In this document: piece by piece, positions 3,051 to 49,288 of the stretch | Layout: the number at the start of each line of letters is the position of its first letter | Position numbering within the stretch: position 1 is the first letter of the stretch | Assembly: GCA_035412805.1 (NCBI GenBank) | Contig: DAONVO010000002.1 | Location: 26 to 64,025 of the forward strand | Reading direction: 5' to 3' | Length of the DNA: 64,000 bases | From: Syntrophomonadaceae bacterium | GTDB lineage: Bacteria; Bacillota; Syntrophomonadia; Syntrophomonadales; Syntrophomonadaceae | Position numbers and translations under genes: made by a program | The notes under the pieces: generated by a model | The model's input: the letters and a program-made list of their open reading frames with translations, nothing else | Database searches by the model: none | Told to the model about the DNA's origin: nothing

Positions 3051-5684
3051 TTAATAACCGTTACTCTTCTGTCTGGGTTGGTGTTCAACCTGCAGAACTA
3101 TATACCCATTGTAAGCCGATAAAGTTACCGTATCTTCCGGGCCGATTTCACCGTTGATAATCTGGCGGGACAGGAGGGTTTCCACCTCATGCTGGATCAG
3201 TCTTCTTAAAGGACGGGCTCCATAGGCCGGATCAAAACCTTTATCAGCCAGAAGCTCCAAGGCGGTTCTATCCCAGCGCAGGTGCGCTTGCACATTCTGC
3301 CGAAAACGCAGAGCCAGATTCTTAAGCAGCAGTTCAGCGATGGCTTGAATCTGTTCCTTTTCCAAGGCATGGAAGACAATGGTTTCATCCACTCGATTCA
3401 AAAACTCCGGCCGGAAGTACTGTTTAAGCAGATCCGTGACTCGGGCTTTCATTAGCTGGTAATCGCCCCCGTTAGCCTGATACTCCAGGATCTCATGACT
3501 TCCTATATTAGAGGTCATAATCACTATGGTATTACGGAAATCTACGGTGCGCCCTTTACCGTCGGTTAAACGCCCATCATCCAGTATCTGTAATAGCACA
3601 TTGAATACATCATTATGAGCCTTTTCGATCTCATCGAACAGTATTACCGAGTAAGGCTTGCGCCGTACAGCCTCAGTCAGCTGACCGCCTTCATCATAAC
3701 CTACATAACCCGGTGGTGCACCGATCAAGCGGGCTACAGTATGCTTTTCCATGTATTCTGACATGTCAAGACGAATCATAGCCCGTTCATCATCAAATAA
3801 AGCTTCAGCTAGAGCTTTACTCAATTCTGTTTTACCTACCCCGGTGGGCCCCAGGAAAATAAAGCTGCCTACCGGCCGCTGGGGATCTTTTAAACCTGCC
3901 CGTGAGCGTAAAACCGCATCAGCCACGGCTTTTACAGCTTCTTTCTGACCGACAACCCTCCGGTGAAGAATCTCTTCCAAATGCAGCAGTTTTTCCCGTT
4001 CACCTTCCAGCAGCCGGCTAACCTGTATACCGGTCCAACGGCTAACCACCCGGGCAATATCTTCTTCGTCTACTTCCTCCTTCAGCAGCCTACTCTGCTG
4101 CTTACCCGCCAGAGCTTCCTGTTCCGCAATGAGACGACGTTCCAGTTCATTAAGCCGCCCGTATTTCAATTCGGCAATACGATTTAAATCATACTCCCGT
4201 TCGGCCCGTTCCATTTCGGTGCGTACTTCTTCCATTTCTTTTTTAATATCCCGTACCCGGGCAATAGCTTCCTTTTCAGATTGCCACTGAGCCTTCATAA
4301 CCTCGGATTCGCTGCGCAAATCCTGCAAATCTTTGAGCAGTAGTTGGAGCCTTTCTTTTGAGGCTTGATCGGTTTCCTTTTCCAAAGCAGCCGCTTCTAT
4401 TTCCAGCTGCATAATGCGCCGGGTTATATCGTCAAGTTCTGCCGGCAAGCTGTCAATCTCCGTACGCAGTTTGGCGGCTGCCTCATCCACCAGGTCGATG
4501 GCTTTATCGGGTAAAAAGCGATCGGATATATAGCGGTCTGAAAGAACCGCTGCTGCTACCAGAGCTGCATCTTTGATACGGACCCCGTGATGCACCTCAT
4601 AACGTTCCCGGAGGCCCCGCAAGATGGAAATGGTGTCTTCCACGCTGGGTTGGTCAACCATCACCGGTTGGAAGCGCCGTTCGAAAGCCGCGTCTTTTTC
4701 GATATGTTTGCGGTATTCATCCAAAGTGGTTGCGCCTATTGCCCGAAGTTCTCCCCGGGCGAGCATGGGTTTTAGAATATTGCTGGCGTCCATGGCACCT
4801 TCCGCAGCACCAGCTCCCACCACGGTATGCAGCTCGTCAATAAATAAAATAATCCGGCCGTTAGAGTCCTGAACCTCTTTTAATACCGCTTTGAGTCTTT
4901 CTTCAAATTCCCCTCGATATTTAGCTCCTGCCACAAGTGAACCCATATCCAAAGCCATTAAGTGCTTATCCTTTAAGCCTTCCGGAACATCCTTGCTGGT
5001 GATCCTCCGGGCCAAACCTTCCACTATGGCTGTTTTACCTACTCCCGGCTCACCAATTAATACCGGATTGTTTTTAGTCCGCCGGGACAGAATTTCAATT
5101 ACCCGGCGTATCTCCTCATCTCTTCCAATTACCGGATCTAGCTTGCCTTCGGCTGCCATCTTGGTCAAATCCCGTCCATAGCGGGTCAAAGCCTCGTAGC
5201 TGTCTTCCGGATTATCACTGGTCACCCGTTGTGCTCCGCGCACACTGCGCATGGCTTGCAGCATTTTTTCCCGGGATAAACCAATCCGGGTCAGTAAATT
5301 TTTTAGTTCTGGTTCGCTGTCAGCCAATAATGCCAACAGCAGGTGTTCCACACTAATATATTCATCTTTTAAATTTTGAGCTTCTTTTTCTGCCCGGCTT
5401 ATTACCCGGGACAAAGCCCCACTCATATATACCGGTCCTTCATAGCCATATACCGAAGGCACAGCGTCCAAAATCTGATTCAATTGAGTTCCTAACCAAC
5501 TAGTGTTTATCCCTGCCTGTTCCAGTAGCCGTGGAGTAATGCCCCCTTCCTGTTGCAACAGAGCAGCCAGCAGGTGTTTTCCTCCTATTTCCTGGTGGTG
5601 TCTATCCGCCGCTATTTGCTGGGCAGCCATAAAGGCCTCCCGTGATTTCTGGGTCAATCTCTCCAAATTCATTCTCATCACCAC
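3051..5684 (-). CDS. clpB: ATP-dependent chaperone/disaggregase ClpB
   Basis: 877-aa ORF with two AAA+ modules (GEPGVGKT and GPTGVGKT Walker A) and a long coiled-coil middle domain. The exact start is ambiguous among GTG/ATG codons at 5672-5684. Confidence 0.95.
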
Positions 5685-8588: not shown

Positions 8589-10316
8589 TCAACCCGCTAT
8601 CGAATATAGTTGAAGCAAGCTTTTAGCCAGATCTTTAAACACCGGAGCAGCGCTCTCAGCTCCTGAGATACCTTCTTCAACCATAACTACCATCGCCCAA
8701 CGAGGATTTGAGGCCGGTAGATAACCGCCAAACCAGGTATTGAGAATCTCTTCCTGCTGTTCATTCACCTGACCGGTTTGACTAGTTCCAGTTTTTCCCG
8801 CCATACTTATTTCCGGCAGAGAAGCACTGCGGCCTGTTCCTTCTTCCAGGGTCAAAACCAGCATATGCTGCAGCTTTCGGGCAGTATCCGCTGATAAAAC
8901 TTGTTCCGGAGCCGGGAGGTCCGGGTAATGTTTGTGTCCTTGTTCATCAATATAGTGGAGAACTAAGGAGGGAGGAATCCACTGGCCATCATCGGCTATA
9001 GTGGCCAGCAGTGTGGTTAATTGCAAAGGTGTTAACTGCACTCCCTGCTGACCTAGAGCAGCGTTGCCCAACCCCGCCGGCCCGGGGTAAATGTGGACAT
9101 AACTGCCAGCATAATAGGGGCCATAACCGACCAGGTTTTCGTCGGTTATATGCAGTTTACCAGTATACTCCTCCAGGGCTTGACGACCTACCAAACGTGC
9201 TATTTCAATAAAAGCCGGGTTACACGAAAAAGCCAAAGCCTGTTCAAAAGTAAGATCACCATGACCTTCTTCCTTCCAACAGGATATTTCCAGCTGCTCA
9301 TTAAAGCGATAAGCACCACTGCAGTGAAAAGCGGTGGAGAAATCCACCACCCCTTTATCCAAGGCAGCTGCGGCTACCAAAATCTTAAACAGTGAACCGG
9401 GATGATAGCTGGTCAGGGCACGGTTCATAAGAGCACTTTCCTGATTAGTACTGATAACCTGGCTTACCTGATAGGGATTAAAGGTTGGTCGGCTGGCCAT
9501 GGCCAACACCTGCCGGGTTTTGACATCCATAACTACAACCGCCCCTTTTTTAACCCGTTGATCCATAACTTTTTCCACCTCGATCTGCACGCGTTTATCG
9601 ATGGTGAGAACCACCGAACCTTTGCTCTGATCCTGTCGCTGGCGTATTTTATACATCAGACCATTTATGGTTTCACCTCTGGCATCCTTAACAGATACCA
9701 GTTCCAATGATGAAGGGCTGTTGCTCAATACTTTATCATAAACCCGTTCTATACCCGATAAGCCCCGGGATGCTTTACTCTGCTCCACTGTACCAATGAC
9801 ATGGGCTAAAAACCCATCTACCGAATAGCGTTTTTGTACCGGAGCTACTACTACACCGGGAATAGCTTGAGTCTGCAGCCGGGCCACCTGGGAAGACGAA
9901 AGGTCAGTGACTAACCTTACGCAAGCTTCTCCAGAGCGGATACTATTCTTAATCTCTTTAGCTGCCTGCTCTTGATTCAGTTCCGGTATCAAAACCGCTA
10001 ATCTTTGCACCAGTCTATTTATCATGGAATCGCCGATTGCCGTATTTTTACCCGAGGGTTGCGCCTGGGCAAAATACTGCCTAGGGAAACAATATAAAGC
10101 AGAGGCAGTATGGATACCGGTCAGAGGCTGATGGTTTCGGTCCCAAATGGTACCGCGGTCATATTCTTTCAGTTCAATTTGCTGACTGCGCATAGCCACC
10201 GCTTTGGCAGCTATTTCTGGCCCGCGCACCAGTTGATAAAAGGCAACCAATACCGATAACCCGCTGAATATTATTAAAAATATGACCATGAGAAGGGTGA
10301 TACGAAAAGTGTTCAA
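8589..10316 (-). CDS. class B penicillin-binding protein (PBP2/SpoVD-like transpeptidase)
   Basis: 575 aa with an N-terminal TM anchor. Transpeptidase motifs SLFK (SxxK), SCN (SxN) and KTGT are present. Confidence 0.85.
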   Translation of the reverse strand: MNTFRITLLMVIFLIIFSGLSVLVAFYQLVRGPEIAAKAVAMRSQQIELKEYDRGTIWDRNHQPLTGIHTASALYCFPRQYFAQAQPSGKNTAIGDSMINRLVQRLAVLIPELNQEQAAKEIKNSIRSGEACVRLVTDLSSSQVARLQTQAIPGVVVAPVQKRYSVDGFLAHVIGTVEQSKASRGLSGIERVYDKVLSNSPSSLELVSVKDARGETINGLMYKIRQRQDQSKGSVVLTIDKRVQIEVEKVMDQRVKKGAVVVMDVKTRQVLAMASRPTFNPYQVSQVISTNQESALMNRALTSYHPGSLFKILVAAAALDKGVVDFSTAFHCSGAYRFNEQLEISCWKEEGHGDLTFEQALAFSCNPAFIEIARLVGRQALEEYTGKLHITDENLVGYGPYYAGSYVHIYPGPAGLGNAALGQQGVQLTPLQLTTLLATIADDGQWIPPSLVLHYIDEQGHKHYPDLPAPEQVLSADTARKLQHMLVLTLEEGTGRSASLPEISMAGKTGTSQTGQVNEQQEEILNTWFGGYLPASNPRWAMVVMVEEGISGAESAAPVFKDLAKSLLQLYSIAG

Positions 10317-10367
10317 GGTAACTCCTCCAGCCAGACTTTAACTTAGCATGGACTATGTTACCGGCAG

Positions 10368-27355: not shown

Positions 27356-27623
27356 TATCCCCTTTCCCCATATTCAGCTTTAAGTATTTTATTTTCCACA
27401 ATAACACCGATTTTTCCTCTCAATATTAAGTTTAAATTTTTACAGAAGTTAATCTATTCATATTAGGATCTTTTTCTTCATAAGTAATTAAGTGGCATTA
27501 TAGTTTTTTAATTGGTATTAAAGAAGGATTTCACATATCAAGGGGAGAATAATGATGGTGGTGTGGTCAGGCATATTTATGTCTGAGTGTAAAGCGAAAA
27601 ATAATTTCTAAGGGGGAAAGCTA

Positions 27624-28904
27624 ATGCAGAACGTGTATGTTGTGGAGGCTGCACGTACACCAGTAGCCCGTGCAGGAAAACAGTCTTGGTTTACCAACAT
27701 TCGTGCAGAGGAACTATCTGCCTTTGTCTTCAAAGAGCTGAGAAAGAGAATCGGCCTGGAAGACAAAGCAAAACAAGGTATCATTGATGACGTAGTGTGG
27801 GCAACCACCGCCAATGCCTTTATGGAACAGGGGTTGAACATAGGCCGCCTGGCTTGGATCCTGTCCGATGGTTCCTATGATGTTCCTGGTTGTACGGTTG
27901 ACCGGTTCTGTGCTTCTGGATTGAACTCCATTCAGTTTGCCATCGCCACCATGATGGTTGGCTGGGGCGGAGACGTTGAGATTGCCGGTGGTGTCCAACA
28001 TATGACCCATATTCCTATGGGTGCCGGTGCTGATCTCCATCCTGATTTGGGCAATTACATGAATTTAGGAGCAATTAACATGGGTTACACTGCTGAAATC
28101 GTAGCCCGCCGCTTTAACGTTACCCGTGAACAGCAAGACGAGTTTGCTATGGAATCCCACCTGAAGTGCGCCGCTGCTCAGGCTGCCAACAAGGTTAAAG
28201 ATGTCATTATCCCCATTCAAGTTAAAGTTCCGGCTAAAGGTGCCAAGGATACCAACCCGCACAACATGCCTGCCCTGTATGTAGCCAGCGATCACCTGGC
28301 TAAAGCCGCTGCTGAAAAAGGTGAAGAACTGGTAGAATGTGTCGTAGCCCGTGACCAGGGTGTACGCCCTGACACCAATATGGAAACTCTGGCCAAGATG
28401 CCCACTGTTTTCATGCAGGACGAAGCTGCCACCGTTACCGCTGGTAACGCCTCTCAGATCAATGACGCTGCTGCCGGTGTTGTCCTGGCCACCGACGAAG
28501 GTGCCAAGGCACTGGGCAAGAAGCCGATTATGAAGATGGTCAGCTGGGCAGTAGTTGGTCTGGAACCCGATATCATGGGTATCGGTCCTGCCCTGGCTAT
28601 ACCCAAGGTTCTCAAGAGAGCCGGTATGACCAAAGATCAGATCGATCTGTGGGAAATTAATGAAGCTTTCGCATCCCAGGCATACTACTGCAGAGAAACC
28701 CTGGGACTGCCCAAAGATCGTGTAAATGTATGGGGATCTGGTATTTCCATCGGCCATCCTCTGGCCTGCACCGGTGCCCGTATTGCCGCCGATATTACAG
28801 CCATGTTCAGAGATCCCGACTTTGCCGATGTAGAATACATCGTCGAGTCCATGTGTATCGGTCACGGTCATGGTGCTGCTGCTATTTGGCAGAGAGTAAA
28901 ATAA
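27624..28904 (+). CDS. acetyl-CoA C-acyltransferase (thiolase), copy 1
   Basis: 426 aa with active-site Cys (CASGLNS) and C-terminal GHPLACTG and CIGHGHG motifs. RBS is AAGGGGGA. Confidence 0.9.
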   Translation: MQNVYVVEAARTPVARAGKQSWFTNIRAEELSAFVFKELRKRIGLEDKAKQGIIDDVVWATTANAFMEQGLNIGRLAWILSDGSYDVPGCTVDRFCASGLNSIQFAIATMMVGWGGDVEIAGGVQHMTHIPMGAGADLHPDLGNYMNLGAINMGYTAEIVARRFNVTREQQDEFAMESHLKCAAAQAANKVKDVIIPIQVKVPAKGAKDTNPHNMPALYVASDHLAKAAAEKGEELVECVVARDQGVRPDTNMETLAKMPTVFMQDEAATVTAGNASQINDAAAGVVLATDEGAKALGKKPIMKMVSWAVVGLEPDIMGIGPALAIPKVLKRAGMTKDQIDLWEINEAFASQAYYCRETLGLPKDRVNVWGSGISIGHPLACTGARIAADITAMFRDPDFADVEYIVESMCIGHGHGAAAIWQRVK

Positions 28905-28968: not shown

Positions 28969-29265
28969 GTGTCAAAATGTCTATAATGACCGGGGAAATG
29001 TCAATCTTGCGTAATTTCTAAATATTTTTGATTTATTTTTGCATTGTAAATTACTAGACTATTAATTTATGTTATGAAATAATTTAACCAGAACCACCCT
29101 TCCCCATACATCAGGTACAGCTTAAATGCTGGCCAATATTACGAAAATTTAATCTTTTTCCGGGTTATAGATTCCTAACTACATTTATGAAATACTAATA
29201 GGTAAGCAGCAGGCTTGTAATTACAGCCTGTTTAGTGCGAAAACAAAAATTAAGGGGGAAAATGC

Positions 29266-30546
29266 ATGCAGAACGTATATGTTGTGGAGGCTGCACGTAC
29301 ACCAGTAGCCCGTGCAGGAAAACAGTCTTGGTTTACCAACATTCGTGCAGAGGAACTATCTGCCTTTGTCTTCAAAGAGCTGAGAAAGAGAATCGGCCTG
29401 GAAGACAAAGCAAAACAAGGTATCATTGATGACGTAGTGTGGGCAACCACCGCCAATGCCTTTATGGAACAGGGGTTGAACATAGGCCGCCTGGCTTGGA
29501 TCCTGTCCGATGGTTCCTATGATGTTCCTGGTTGTACGGTTGACCGGTTCTGTGCTTCTGGATTGAACTCCATTCAGTTTGCCATCGCCACCATGATGGT
29601 TGGCTGGGGCGGAGACGTTGAGATTGCCGGTGGTGTCCAACATATGACCCATATTCCTATGGGTGCCGGTGCTGATCTCCATCCTGATTTGGGCAATTAC
29701 ATGAATTTAGGAGCAATTAACATGGGTTACACTGCTGAAATCGTAGCCCGCCGCTTTAACGTTACCCGTGAACAGCAAGACGAGTTTGCTATGGAATCCC
29801 ACCTGAAGTGCGCCGCTGCTCAGGCTGCCAACAAGGTTAAAGATGTCATTATCCCCATTCAAGTTAAAGTTCCGGCTAAAGGTGCCAAGGATACCAACCC
29901 GCACAACATGCCTGCCCTGTATGTAGCCAGCGATCACCTGGCTAAAGCCGCTGCTGAAAAAGGTGAAGAACTGGTAGAATGTGTCGTAGCCCGTGACCAG
30001 GGTGTACGCCCTGACACCAATATGGAAACTCTGGCCAAGATGCCCACTGTTTTCATGCAGGACGAAGCTGCCACCGTTACCGCTGGTAACGCCTCTCAGA
30101 TCAATGACGCTGCTGCCGGTGTTGTCCTGGCCACCGACGAAGGTGCCAAGGCACTGGGCAAGAAGCCGATTATGAAGATGGTCAGCTGGGCAGTAGTTGG
30201 TCTGGAACCCGATATCATGGGTATCGGTCCTGCCCTGGCTATACCCAAGGTTCTCAAGAGAGCCGGTATGACCAAAGATCAGATCGATCTGTGGGAAATT
30301 AATGAAGCTTTCGCATCCCAGGCATACTACTGCAGAGAAACCCTGGGACTGCCCAAAGATCGTGTAAATGTATGGGGATCTGGTATTTCCATCGGCCATC
30401 CTCTGGCCTGCACCGGTGCCCGTATTGCCGCCGATATTACAGCCATGTTCAGAGATCCCGACTTTGCCGATGTAGAATACATCGTCGAGTCCATGTGTAT
30501 CGGTCACGGTCATGGTGCTGCTGCTATTTGGCAGAGAGTAAAATAA
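29266..30546 (+). CDS. acetyl-CoA C-acyltransferase (thiolase), copy 2
   Basis: Protein is 100% identical to copy 1. The antisense-frame ORFs are identical too, so the DNA is essentially identical. The only coding difference seen is synonymous (codon 5, GTG vs GTA). Confidence 0.9.
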   Translation: MQNVYVVEAARTPVARAGKQSWFTNIRAEELSAFVFKELRKRIGLEDKAKQGIIDDVVWATTANAFMEQGLNIGRLAWILSDGSYDVPGCTVDRFCASGLNSIQFAIATMMVGWGGDVEIAGGVQHMTHIPMGAGADLHPDLGNYMNLGAINMGYTAEIVARRFNVTREQQDEFAMESHLKCAAAQAANKVKDVIIPIQVKVPAKGAKDTNPHNMPALYVASDHLAKAAAEKGEELVECVVARDQGVRPDTNMETLAKMPTVFMQDEAATVTAGNASQINDAAAGVVLATDEGAKALGKKPIMKMVSWAVVGLEPDIMGIGPALAIPKVLKRAGMTKDQIDLWEINEAFASQAYYCRETLGLPKDRVNVWGSGISIGHPLACTGARIAADITAMFRDPDFADVEYIVESMCIGHGHGAAAIWQRVK

Positions 30547-33400: not shown

Positions 33401-33466
33401 TTCTGAGACCCCAATCAATGGTGTATCAACTGAAGAACAGGCCATGATAAATGAAAACATGCCTCA

Positions 33467-33540
33467 CGGCTAATACTCCTGCATCCTGGCTGACACTCCT
33501 GCAAAACCGTGGTTAGCGTAGAGCGGCATAGAGGTTGCCA
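33467..33540 (+). repeat. fragment F1 of the structured element (3' arm + tail only)
   Basis: CGGCTAATACTCCTGCATCCTGGCTGACACTCCTGC...GGCATAGAG matches 34153-34220 and 49112-49175. Confidence 0.8.
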
Positions 33541-33700
33541 TGTTCCTTGCAGGAGCTCTTAGTTGCCAGTAGGTTGCCCTTCGCACCTGTTCCGTCGTCA
33601 CGATATAGTAAACGGCTCGATGTGCGTCTCAGGGGGTACCGGGCTAAACAAACATCCTGTTTGATAGCCCTCTTGGGACATCCTATCCCTCGCCCCCCTT
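33541..33700 (-). repeat. fragment F2, inverted and degenerate copy of the element
   Basis: The reverse complement carries TTAGCCCGG, CGAGCCGTT and TGCGAAG in element order. Diverged and internally deleted. Confidence 0.5.
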
Positions 33701-33790
33701 CGCCCGCCCATCTTCACCGACTATATCGGACTCCTTCACCAAGGTGCTCATGGCAAACCCACTGTCAAACTATTTTAGTAAAATGATAAC

Positions 33791-33909
33791 ATCGCTGCAC
33801 GGCTTAAGCAGGGAGTATTAGCTGGGCGAGTGACGTACGACGTGCCGTTGCAGGGTCCATCAGTAGTCCTTTAGGGCAATGACACATTAGGAAACCATCT
33901 TCACAGCAA
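33791..33909 (+). repeat. fragment F3, 5' arm joined to the terminal TTCACAGCAA motif (internal deletion variant)
   Basis: ATCGCTGCACGGCTTAAGCAGGGAGTATTAGCTGGGCGAGTGACGTACGACGTGCCGTTGCA is near-identical to 48900-48961. It ends in CTTCACAGCAAT. Confidence 0.8.
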
Positions 33910-33945
33910 TTATCACCTGTGGTACAGACCACGAATGAAAAAATA

Positions 33946-34294
33946 ATTGCATGGCTTAGGAAGAAATATTAGCCCGGCGAGCGACTTACGACGAGCCGTT
34001 GCTACCCACAGCGAAACTGAGGGCTGCGAAGCGGAGCGAGAAACAGGATGTTTCGAGCAGCAAGTACTGAGTGCATGGATGCCGAATTACGAGCGGACCG
34101 CTTCGCACCGAAGTAAGCTGGTGGGTTGCAGGCGAGGAGTCCCGGAGCGAGCCGGCTAATACTCCTGCATCCTGGCTGACACTCCTGCCAAGTTGTGGTT
34201 AGCGCAGGTGGACATAGAGATCGCCACGCGCTACGCGCTCGCGATGACAGTACAGCTGTCTTTTGCACTAACACGAGGACAGTTTTCACAGCAA
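33946..34294 (+). repeat. full copy A of an unclassified ~330-nt structured interspersed element (candidate ncRNA or non-autonomous mobile element)
   Basis: Aligns with 48900-49228 along its length at roughly 85% identity by eye. The core 33967-34161 folds as a nested long hairpin. The tail ends in TTTTCACAGCAAT. Confidence 0.85.
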
Positions 34295-34358
34295 TATCTT
34301 AAATAATCTACGCCAATCTGCGTCTGATTTTTTACGAGCAACACAGGCGATGGGCCTT

Positions 34359-47882: not shown

Positions 47883-48683
47883 TCAATCGAGAAAAACCTG
47901 TTCCACCTTCTGAATGACATCACCAATTAACAACTTCCCCACGGTGAAAAAGGATTCCTGGTTGCCACTGACATAAAACTGCCGCTGTGGCTGCTCATTG
48001 GTTTGCCGGGCTAAATTCTGGCTCCGCAGAACCTGTTTCAGTTCCTCCACTGTAGCATGGGAGGGATCTATCAGAGTGACTTGGCTACCGGCAAATTCGG
48101 CTATTACCGGAGACAAGAAAGGATAATGGGTACAGCCTAAGACCAGAGTATCTATACCTTGATCCATTAGAGGGCCAATATATTCATGCACCGCTTGCCG
48201 GGTATCACTGTCATCCAGTTTACCAGACTCAACCAGAGGTACAAATTTAGGGCAGGCGATCTCCACAACGGTGCAGTCAGGACGCAGAGACTTGATTTCC
48301 CGGGTGAAAGTTCCACTGTTTACCGTAGCCTGGGTAGCCACTACGCCAATGCATTGATTTGATGTGGCATCCACCGCACTGCGCGCTGCTCCTTTTACCA
48401 CCCCTAACATAGGAATAGGATAATCGTTTATGATATGCTGCAGGGTAACCGATGAATGAGTCCCGCAGGCGACTACCACTGCTTTTACCGGAAACTGCCC
48501 GAAAAAAGCCATAATACTCCGGGCGTAGGTCATCAGTTGTTCGGGAGTCTTGTTTCCATAGGGTAAATGAGCCGTATCACCGAAGTAAATAAAATCTTCA
48601 TCAGGTAGTTCGGCCAGCAGAGTTTTTATGACAGTCAGGCCTCCCACACCCGAATCTAATACCCCGATGGGTTGTTTATTCAT
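47883..48683 (-). CDS. murI: glutamate racemase
   Basis: 266 aa with the DSGVGGL motif and two catalytic Cys motifs (VVACGTHS, LGCTHYP). Confidence 0.93.
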   Translation of the reverse strand: MNKQPIGVLDSGVGGLTVIKTLLAELPDEDFIYFGDTAHLPYGNKTPEQLMTYARSIMAFFGQFPVKAVVVACGTHSSVTLQHIINDYPIPMLGVVKGAARSAVDATSNQCIGVVATQATVNSGTFTREIKSLRPDCTVVEIACPKFVPLVESGKLDDSDTRQAVHEYIGPLMDQGIDTLVLGCTHYPFLSPVIAEFAGSQVTLIDPSHATVEELKQVLRSQNLARQTNEQPQRQFYVSGNQESFFTVGKLLIGDVIQKVEQVFLD

Positions 48684-48899
48684 TCAACAAACACCTCATT
48701 GAATGGGATCGGCAGCCTATTTTACCGTTCCCCAACATACACTAATTAATGTATCACTTTTATAATGGTAATGCCATTAATTAACCAAATACATTACATA
48801 CTCAACCAGTATTGTTGTGAAAACTCCTTTTACAGGAGTCGAAGTGTGACAGAAGGTTTGCCCTTAGCACTTGTGGCACAGGCCACGATAAGTGCAAAC

Positions 48900-49228
48900 A
48901 TCGCTGCACGGCTTAAGCAGGAAGTATTAGCCGGGTGAGCGACGTACGACGAGCCGTTGCAACACACGGCGAAACTGAGGGCTGCGAAACGGAGCGAGAA
49001 ACAGGATGTTTCGAGCAGCGAGAACTGAGTGCATGGATGCCGAATTCCGAGCGGTCCGTTTCGCACCGAAGTAAGCCGATGTGTTGCAGGTGAGGAGTCT
49101 TGGAGCGAGCCGGTTAATACCCCTGCATCCCGGCTAACACTCCTGCCGTGCCGTGGTAAGCTTAGACCGGCATAGAGTTTGCGCGCTCTTCGCGCTCACC
49201 AGAACACATAAGAAAGCATTTTCACAGG
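48900..49228 (+). repeat. full copy B of the structured interspersed element
   Basis: Collinear with 33946-34294. Core hairpin is at 48925-49119. The tail ends in ATTTTCACAGGAA. Confidence 0.85.
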
Positions 49229-49250
49229 AAGGAAGGGGTTATTGCCCCAC

Positions 49251-49288
49251 CAATAAAATAAAGGAGAGACAGCCTGGCTATCTCTCCT
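49251..49288 (-). terminator. rho-independent terminator of gerM
   Basis: On the minus strand, AGGAGAGA-loop-TCTCTCCT is followed by TTATTTTATT. Confidence 0.7.

Follow-up and report, generated by a model that had tools for sequence, protein, structure and literature searches.

A probable TwoAYGGAY-type mobile repeat in the gerM-murI spacer of a Syntrophomonadaceae bacterium

The DNA analysed here (the window) is a 64,000-nucleotide stretch of a Syntrophomonadaceae contig (DAONVO010000002.1). Its MurI protein, whose closest named relatives belong to the Syntrophomonadaceae, was also found on metagenome contigs from anaerobic digesters. On the - strand of the window lies murI (ORF 47883..48683), preceded by an upstream block (48684..48778, - strand) that is conserved across five species. 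On the same strand lies the intrinsic terminator of gerM (49262..49288), which is conserved in all the related species compared. Alignment of orthologous spacers delimited an inserted block of about 460 bp (48779..49251) between the tail of this terminator and the murI upstream block. The inserted block holds copy B of a structured element, flanked by murI and the gerM terminator as a preliminary description of this DNA had stated. The core pattern of the element has an expectation of 0 chance occurrences in the window. The murI upstream block carries a palindrome (ACATTAATTAGTGT, about 48725-48750, - strand), a likely binding site for a protein that controls murI.

The main part of copy B is a 210-nt hairpin on the + strand (48917..49126), defined from folds and from pair counts on 77 copies. 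From the outside inwards, it consists of P1 (48917-48935 with 49110-49126), a G.A-rich stem (48936-48956 with 49088-49109), P2 (48959-48970 with 49075-49087), and P3 (48983-48993 with 49055-49065), all on the + strand, and its apex is a three-way junction. Of the two apical hairpins, H1 (48994..49016, + strand; GCGA-GAAAC[AGGAU]GUUUC-GAGC) has a tandem G.A at its base and its GGA at 49004-49006. The other, H2 (49018..49052, + strand), has two tandem G.A steps, the loop CAUGGAUG, and its GGA at 49035-49037.

On the 5′ side of the hairpin is a leader module (48870..48916, + strand) with the consensus GCAATTRTCACCTG-N5-CAGGCCACGATGAATGAAAACATCGCTGCACGGCTTAA, which is kept at this place in 29 aligned copies. 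It contains a small hairpin whose 5-nt loop is variable, and it has a sharp boundary at GCAATT in these copies; in copy B it is degenerate (CTTAGCACTTG...). On the 3′ side, CCGGCTAACACTCCTGC and then CGTGCCGTGG form a second copy of the 3′ arm as a direct repeat (49130..49156, + strand), the P1 3′ arm being duplicated in tandem at 49110-49126 and 49130-49146. As read from the sequence, the 5′ arm (48907-48935) can pair with 49130-49156 as an alternative, longer outer stem. Pairing with the distal arm adds CACGGC/GCCGTG, and the MFE fold of copy B pairs 48906-48912 with the duplicated arm (49130-49156). The duplication is possibly an alternative conformation or a relic of slippage. The inserted block also contains a degenerate REP-like small hairpin (49175..49202, + strand; GAGTTTGCGCGCTCTTCGCGCTCACCAG), which was aligned with copy A and with an intact module at 34219-34245. 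The gene strand (-) of the block has another small hairpin, ACTCCT-GTAAA-AGGAGT, with TTTT behind it. This last hairpin had been described earlier and does exist, but at 48819..48839 and not at 48822-48845. It fails the terminator scan, with four T only, and is missing from the empty sites.

Copy A (hairpin 33959..34168, + strand; whole unit about 33885-34295) belongs to the same family and is 86% identical to copy B over 267 nt. The window has two further A/B-type pieces on the + strand. In an internally deleted copy (33440..33540), the leader is joined directly to the 3′ arm; the deletion sits between CGGCT repeats, and the 3′-arm duplication of copy B involves the same repeats. The other piece, identified by alignment with the other window copies, is a fragment with the leader and 5′ arm only (33781..33852). 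A long hairpin of a second family, family C, lies on the - strand (33560..33790; MFE -101 kcal/mol, z -6.5).

Outside the window, an exact-pattern scan for the core in one genome per species found the element in 13 contigs of the Syntrophomonas sp. DTU018 MAG, in one Syntrophothermus MAG, and at many Psychromonas loci. A metagenome scan with a 20-nt core found at least 113 loci, and a search of viral contigs and plasmids gave no match. The hairpin is part of a mosaic repeat of about 400-460 bp, together with the leader and REP-like hairpins. The first 16 copies inspected were all intergenic, between long ORFs, and many copies begin 5-40 nt past a stop codon. Between tandem genes (n = 27), the GGA strand is antisense in 23 cases and sense in 4, and the other contexts are 11 convergent and 7 divergent; in this tally the ORFs were called by a simple longest-ORF rule, and some orthologous loci from different metagenomes may have entered more than once. 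Of 93 flanks, 60 have a negative GC skew on the strand of the element.

Comparison with related genomes gave three pairs of filled and empty sites in all. The first is the gerM-murI spacer. In three related species (L155, L156, and L157; MurI 80-84% identical), this spacer is 154-167 bp long, has no element, and is made up of the terminator and a 95-nt murI upstream block joined by a short linker. In the lineage of the window it is 625 bp long. In a closer relative (MurI 89% identical), the gerM-murI spot holds REP-like hairpins and the leader module with no big hairpin. The second site is behind murI, where this closer relative (L153/L154) has a full A/B-type copy (3302-3700), antisense to the operon, with the murI stop codon on one side and the next gene's ribosome-binding site on the other; the same site is empty in the window. 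The H1 GGA has been lost from this post-murI copy. The third site, at about position 10332, is empty in the window and filled in L022, L059, and L088. The TTG start of ORF 8589..10316 follows about 15 nt downstream, its ribosome-binding site coming just after the empty site, and DTU018 carries a 405-bp unit at the matching site. No target-site duplication was found at the three filled/empty junctions. The site of copy A is common to the window and a related species (L086, L050, and L079), in which the hairpin is 92% and the flanking genes are 83% identical. A DTU018 locus (L004) with a neighbouring ORF of the same length was considered as the orthologue of copy B and rejected, as BLASTP showed no homology of this ORF to GerM or MurI.

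By these spacer alignments, copy B was inserted in this lineage only, and its place is between the gerM terminator and the region upstream of murI. If it influences murI or gerM at all, this would be incidental to the landing site of a repeat, and for the biology of these two genes copy B probably matters little.

For the analysis of the fold, 84 distinct full copies were gathered and 77 were kept after removal of truncated or chimeric ones. RNAalifold gave a noisy consensus on the 77-copy alignment. A structure of 67 pairs was written by hand from single-sequence and 16-copy folds and was then tested by pair counts. Over these 67 pairs in 77 non-identical copies, 95.6% of the cells were paired, and changes on both sides were found at 24 pairs. 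All five measures beat 500 out of 500 column shuffles. Slid registers were at most 40% paired, a control that may be somewhat flattering because the structure was hand-written. The strongest covarying pairs, numbered by columns of the trimmed alignment, are 81:149 in P3 (C-G 32, G-C 26), 114:138 in H2 (U-A 36, G-C 34), and 55:174 in P2 (A-U 28, C-G 20). The copies are young, with a mean pairwise identity of 85%; conservation alone is weak evidence here, and the counts are not independent events.

The preliminary description had proposed that the fold is under selection from copies A and B alone, and we confirmed its readings of the bases. Where copy A has G34031-C34101 in P3 and C34006-G34124 in P2, copy B has A48989-T49059 and A48964-T49082, respectively. 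Copy B also has an A-T pair in P2 in place of a T.T mismatch of copy A (GCTACCC/GGGTTGC), and in its P1 T49114 faces G48930. The A-U pair in P3 of copy B is unique among the 77 copies; intermediates at this position are A.C in 3 copies and G.U in 2. Two copies are thin evidence for covariation, and it is the 77-copy alignment, the kind of test that the description had called for, that makes it solid and argues for selection on the fold. Rare variants are not depleted in paired columns (1.17 vs. 0.73 per column). For this reason, the selection seems to act on propagating lineages, that is, on source copies, and not on each resident copy, and individual copies may be decaying neutrally.

The stems are interrupted by seven symmetric 5′-GA/5′-GA internal loops, of which the outer stem has four and the core three; each loop is kept in 59-77 of the 77 copies. 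Nine copies have another sequence in place of the G.A/A.G step under H1, and in five of these nine both pairs are Watson-Crick (U-A, C-G). The H1 loop, C-AGGAN-G, retains its GGA in 73 of 77 copies, in a stretch that was outside the metagenome search pattern, and the base after it varies freely (U 37, C 17, G 16). The H2 loop (AUGGAU) is invariant in 77 of 77 copies, a conservation that is biased, as the loop was part of the search patterns.

Copy B has a predicted fold of -130 kcal/mol (z -3.96 against shuffles), and the fold of copy A is weaker (z -2.29). As the reverse strand of copy B folds equally well (-130.2 kcal/mol, z -3.88), the two strands are not separable by fold energy. The preliminary description had favoured a + strand RNA as the functional form, partly on account of the G.U pair in P1 of copy B. 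This pair is a singleton and is no evidence for either strand, since rare G.U and A.C variants are about equally frequent (16 vs. 12 singletons; 26 vs. 24 among variants in at most two copies). Counted over all cells, G.U exceeds A.C (148 vs. 79), and the excess comes from a few widely shared types; among the variants common to more than three copies there are 11 G.U and 2 A.C. With the rare variants balanced, the comparison of G.U with A.C was dropped as the main strand evidence. The choice of strand itself stands up better. The - strand equivalents of the GGA loops and G.A steps are UCC and U-C/U-C, and the Rfam TwoAYGGAY model matches the + strand only. From the Rfam strand, the GGA loops, the GA/GA loops, and the excess of shared G.U, the + strand is more likely to be the folded strand. 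Several fixed G.U pairs of family C sit on its GGA strand, which points the same way. Whether it is RNA or single-stranded DNA that folds cannot be distinguished by sequence alone.

At the Rfam gathering threshold, the element gave no match, and the only match in the window was a c-di-GMP riboswitch elsewhere. In the E-value mode of cmscan, the TwoAYGGAY model (RF01731; gathering score 43) matched copy B with 33.5 bits (E 0.0022) and copy A with 29.3 bits. These matches cover model positions 43-115 of 168 only, on the + strand, at the apex of the hairpin (48988..49060 in copy B). The DTU018 sister copies are 83-92% identical to the window copies, and two of them (L029 and L004) reach 44.1 and 43.9 bits over positions 1-168, above the gathering score. 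Three Psychromonas copies also reach it over the full model.

The element resembles TwoAYGGAY in its two adjacent apical hairpins with GGA-centred loops enclosed by a long P1 (here P3, P2, and P1), in its tandem G.A pairs in the stems (three core steps and four outer ones), in its covarying stems, in its occurrence in Clostridia, and in having no consistent gene association. It differs in the scores of the window copies, which are below the cut-off, and in its H1 loop, which is AGGAU, AGGAC, or AGGAG and falls one base short of AYGGAY, lacking the Y before GGA, whereas the AUGGAU of H2 fits. The closing stem is also longer here, with arms of about 100 nt and four additional tandem G.A steps, and the motif lies within a mosaic repeat of many copies, which some orthologous sites have and others lack. 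Taken together, copy B is very probably a TwoAYGGAY-type mobile repeat.

The TwoAYGGAY family has been known since 2010 and its function is unexplained. In the original description its P1 "is often very large", and the motif was not flagged as repetitive or transposon-associated (Weinberg et al. 2010, PMC2864571). Tandem G.A pairs have been reported for it, and CsrA binding has been proposed (Gardner and Eldai 2015, PMC4333381). What our analysis adds to the published description is that the motif is repetitive and mosaic, that some orthologous sites have it and others lack it, that its G.A-rich stem is extended and its orientation biased, and that a second family and chimeras exist. Annotators should be warned that copies of this kind score slightly below the Rfam cut-off. 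CsrA binding is the one hypothesis on record, and the facts at this locus sharpen the questions of strand, CsrA, and mobility.

As a whole, we lean slightly towards an explanation in which copy B is a TwoAYGGAY mobile repeat whose + strand RNA shows its GGA loops to a CsrA-type protein. Copy B would be a resident of a dispersed intergenic Syntrophomonadaceae repeat family that is spread and lost between lineages. The folded form would be a + strand RNA whose transcription does not depend on the genes next to it. This transcript would form a rigid, G.A-studded hairpin and would offer a dimeric CsrA-type RNA-binding protein two GGA loops spaced about 31 nt apart. Taken separately, the decoy mechanism is tentative and somewhat doubtful.

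The loops are in keeping with such a decoy. The H2 loop CAUGGAUG equals the RsmE/CsrA consensus CANGGANG, and the C-AGGAU-G of H1 is one base short of it. Two GGA sites with a spacing of about 31 nt could be bridged by a CsrA dimer. The retention of the H1 GGA in 73 of 77 copies, next to a base that is free to vary, also speaks for a decoy, and the hypothesis is already in print (PMC4333381). CsrB, CsrC, and RsmX/Y/Z likewise have GGA in hairpin loops, and the sponges known so far are gammaproteobacterial (PMC4333381). However, the CsrA sponges have 4-22 sites per unit, far above the two per element here, and are encoded by one or a few regulated genes, in contrast to the many dispersed copies with no recognisable promoter or terminator found here. 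The identity of the motif is itself a difficulty, as the window copies are under the Rfam cut-off and H1 reads AGGAN, not AYGGAY.

In Firmicutes, CsrA is antagonised by the protein FliW. Neither csrA nor fliW was found by tblastn in the window and 1.2 Mb of fetched loci, which counts against a decoy; this is a weak negative. A literature search for CsrA in Syntrophomonas found nothing relevant.

A + strand small RNA also meets with difficulties in transcription. Our scans of copy B showed no sigma-70 promoter or + strand intrinsic terminator, and those of copy A showed none that was convincing. The leader has a weak promoter-like pair, TTGTCA-N17-GATGAA, without the key final T, and when it was compared by eye with the sigma-H, sigma-D, sigma-54, and sporulation-sigma consensus sequences, none fitted. 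Because the + strand is antisense to its neighbours in 23 of the 27 tandem-gene contexts, the RNA that is most certain to be made is that of the - strand. The recent variants, without G.U against A.C asymmetry and undepleted in paired columns, also count against a + strand RNA.

In the strongest competitor of the RNA reading, the element is selfish, a structured repeat like the MITE, REP/BIME, BOX, or Correia elements, with no host function, and any RNA effects are by-products; we regard this as possible, if on the doubtful side. In such a repeat the long hairpin would serve its own propagation, for example through a transposase or recombinase that recognises a folded single DNA strand, or would merely be tolerated. 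This agrees with the high copy number and dispersal (13 in the DTU018 MAG and at least 113 metagenome loci) and with the three presence/absence polymorphisms, of which two lie within operons, after a stop codon and before the ribosome-binding site that follows. It also agrees with a mosaic build of independent modules, partial copies, and chimeras, and with the failure of the scans to find a promoter or terminator. Rare variants that are undepleted in stems, so that selection seems to be on source copies only, point in this direction too. So does the orientation, which correlates with gene direction and GC skew (60 of 93 flanks), as expected of a replication-coupled single-strand mechanism.

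REP/BIME, BOX, ERIC, and Correia/NEMIS elements are also imperfect palindromes with tens to hundreds of copies, intergenic and often just after genes, and share the modular mosaic, the presence or absence between relatives, and the co-transcription with neighbouring genes. The hairpin here, however, is much longer than theirs, its three-way apex is conserved across phyla, its mismatches are uniformly G.A/A.G, and it shows no target-site duplication, no terminal inverted repeat of a known IS, and no cognate transposase. The arms are not simple terminal inverted repeats, which weighs against a purely selfish element, as does the lack of a target-site duplication at the three junctions. A tblastn search for the IS200/IS608 TnpA (Y1 transposase) in 1.2 Mb of flanking sequence found none, a weak negative, and no autonomous partner was seen; the lack of matches in viral contigs and plasmids weighs on the same side. 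Finally, the GGA-loop junction is common to the Psychromonas copies, and this is hard to reconcile with the transposase site of one lineage. A longer autonomous element, if there is one, might end in the leader or in the TTTTCACAGCAAT module.

A wider and rather speculative view would combine mobility with RNA binding. TwoAYGGAY elements would then be cross-phylum, self-propagating structured cassettes, and their long G.A-studded hairpin, with its T-shaped tip of GGA loops, would be a signal for mobilisation as well as a portable RNA that binds protein. In mobilisation it could work as a folded single-stranded nucleic acid, and as RNA it could be, for example, a spreadable CsrA decoy or the carrier of an outward-reading promoter. 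If this were true, copy number and operon insertion would retune post-transcriptional control, and a motif that has been an orphan since 2010 would gain a biology.

It is improbable that the functional form is the - strand RNA within operon transcripts, in which the hairpin would mark a site for processing, stabilise 3′ ends, or partly terminate transcription between genes. The orientation in tandem contexts, by which the - strand is co-transcribed, the many copies at 5-40 nt after a stop codon, the equally good in silico fold of that strand, and the gene-strand hairpin with four T in the block of copy B would all suit such a role. Yet the U-C/U-C mismatches and UCC loops of this strand are not known stabilising features, the Rfam model and the shared wobble variants (11 to 2) favour the + strand, and convergent (11), divergent (7), and co-oriented (4) contexts also exist.

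The preliminary description took copy B for antisense to the murI leader, and a cis-encoded antisense RNA regulating murI through its leader is hardly credible: its position between gerM and murI on the opposite strand fits, and a + strand RNA would be complementary to the spacer if gerM read-through reached murI, but a + strand transcript of 48900-49228 heads away from murI towards the gerM 3′ end, the gerM terminator is strong, the conserved upstream block (48684-48778) lies outside the insertion, the spacer is empty in three related species and holds a different mosaic in a fourth, and unrelated genes adjoin the element at more than 100 loci.

The Psychromonas TwoAYGGAY copies are multi-copy too (L005-L007, L011-L015, L018, L023, L026, L027, L030, L036, and L037). 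They have a common downstream double hairpin, CTTTGCTTACTTTCTCT...AGAGAAAGTAAAGTCGCCGnnAGGGCGAAA, and GACGAGCGnAGACGAG-like flanks. From these sequences, the motif seems to ride on repeats in gammaproteobacteria as well. Among the A/B-type copies, one sub-lineage (L043, L067, L076, and L110) has UCGCUCGAAAC and not AGCGAGAAAC as the strand 5′ of H1, and its H1 loop is without two bases and the GGA (ACAGA--GU).

The family C hairpin of the window (33560-33790, - strand) is 231 nt long and is capped by the GGA hairpins GGGAUAGGAUGUCCC and CAAACAGGAUGUUUG. It has at least seven relatives in the fetched loci, usually less than 300 bp from an A/B-type copy and on the opposite strand, and it gave no match to the Rfam TwoAYGGAY model even at E ≤ 10. 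Chimeric copies (L035:7597-7822 and L097, the latter identical in L091 and L109) have a 5′ arm of family C and a 3′ half of the A/B type, joined near GCGAAGGGG. These suggest recombination between the two.

The REP-like hairpin module is about 30 nt long, GATCGCCACG-nnnn-loop-nnnn-CTCGCGAT(GACA). It was found at 34219-34245, in degenerate form at 49175-49202, and many times in L022, L106, L153, and L154; with the strict pattern there is one copy in the window. Its apical pairs vary between copies (GCGC/GCGC, CCCC/GGGG, and GGCAC/GTGCC). The module flanks the big element, often after it, and also stands alone in both orientations.

Elsewhere in the window, a c-di-GMP-I-GGC riboswitch aptamer (RF03167) lies at 438-527 on the + strand and scored 74.2 bits, well above threshold. 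A 300-nt direct repeat with 97% identity was found at 27598-27897 and 29240-29539, 1642 bp apart. L050 aligns to both of its copies, and this suggests a local duplication in the lineage of the window.
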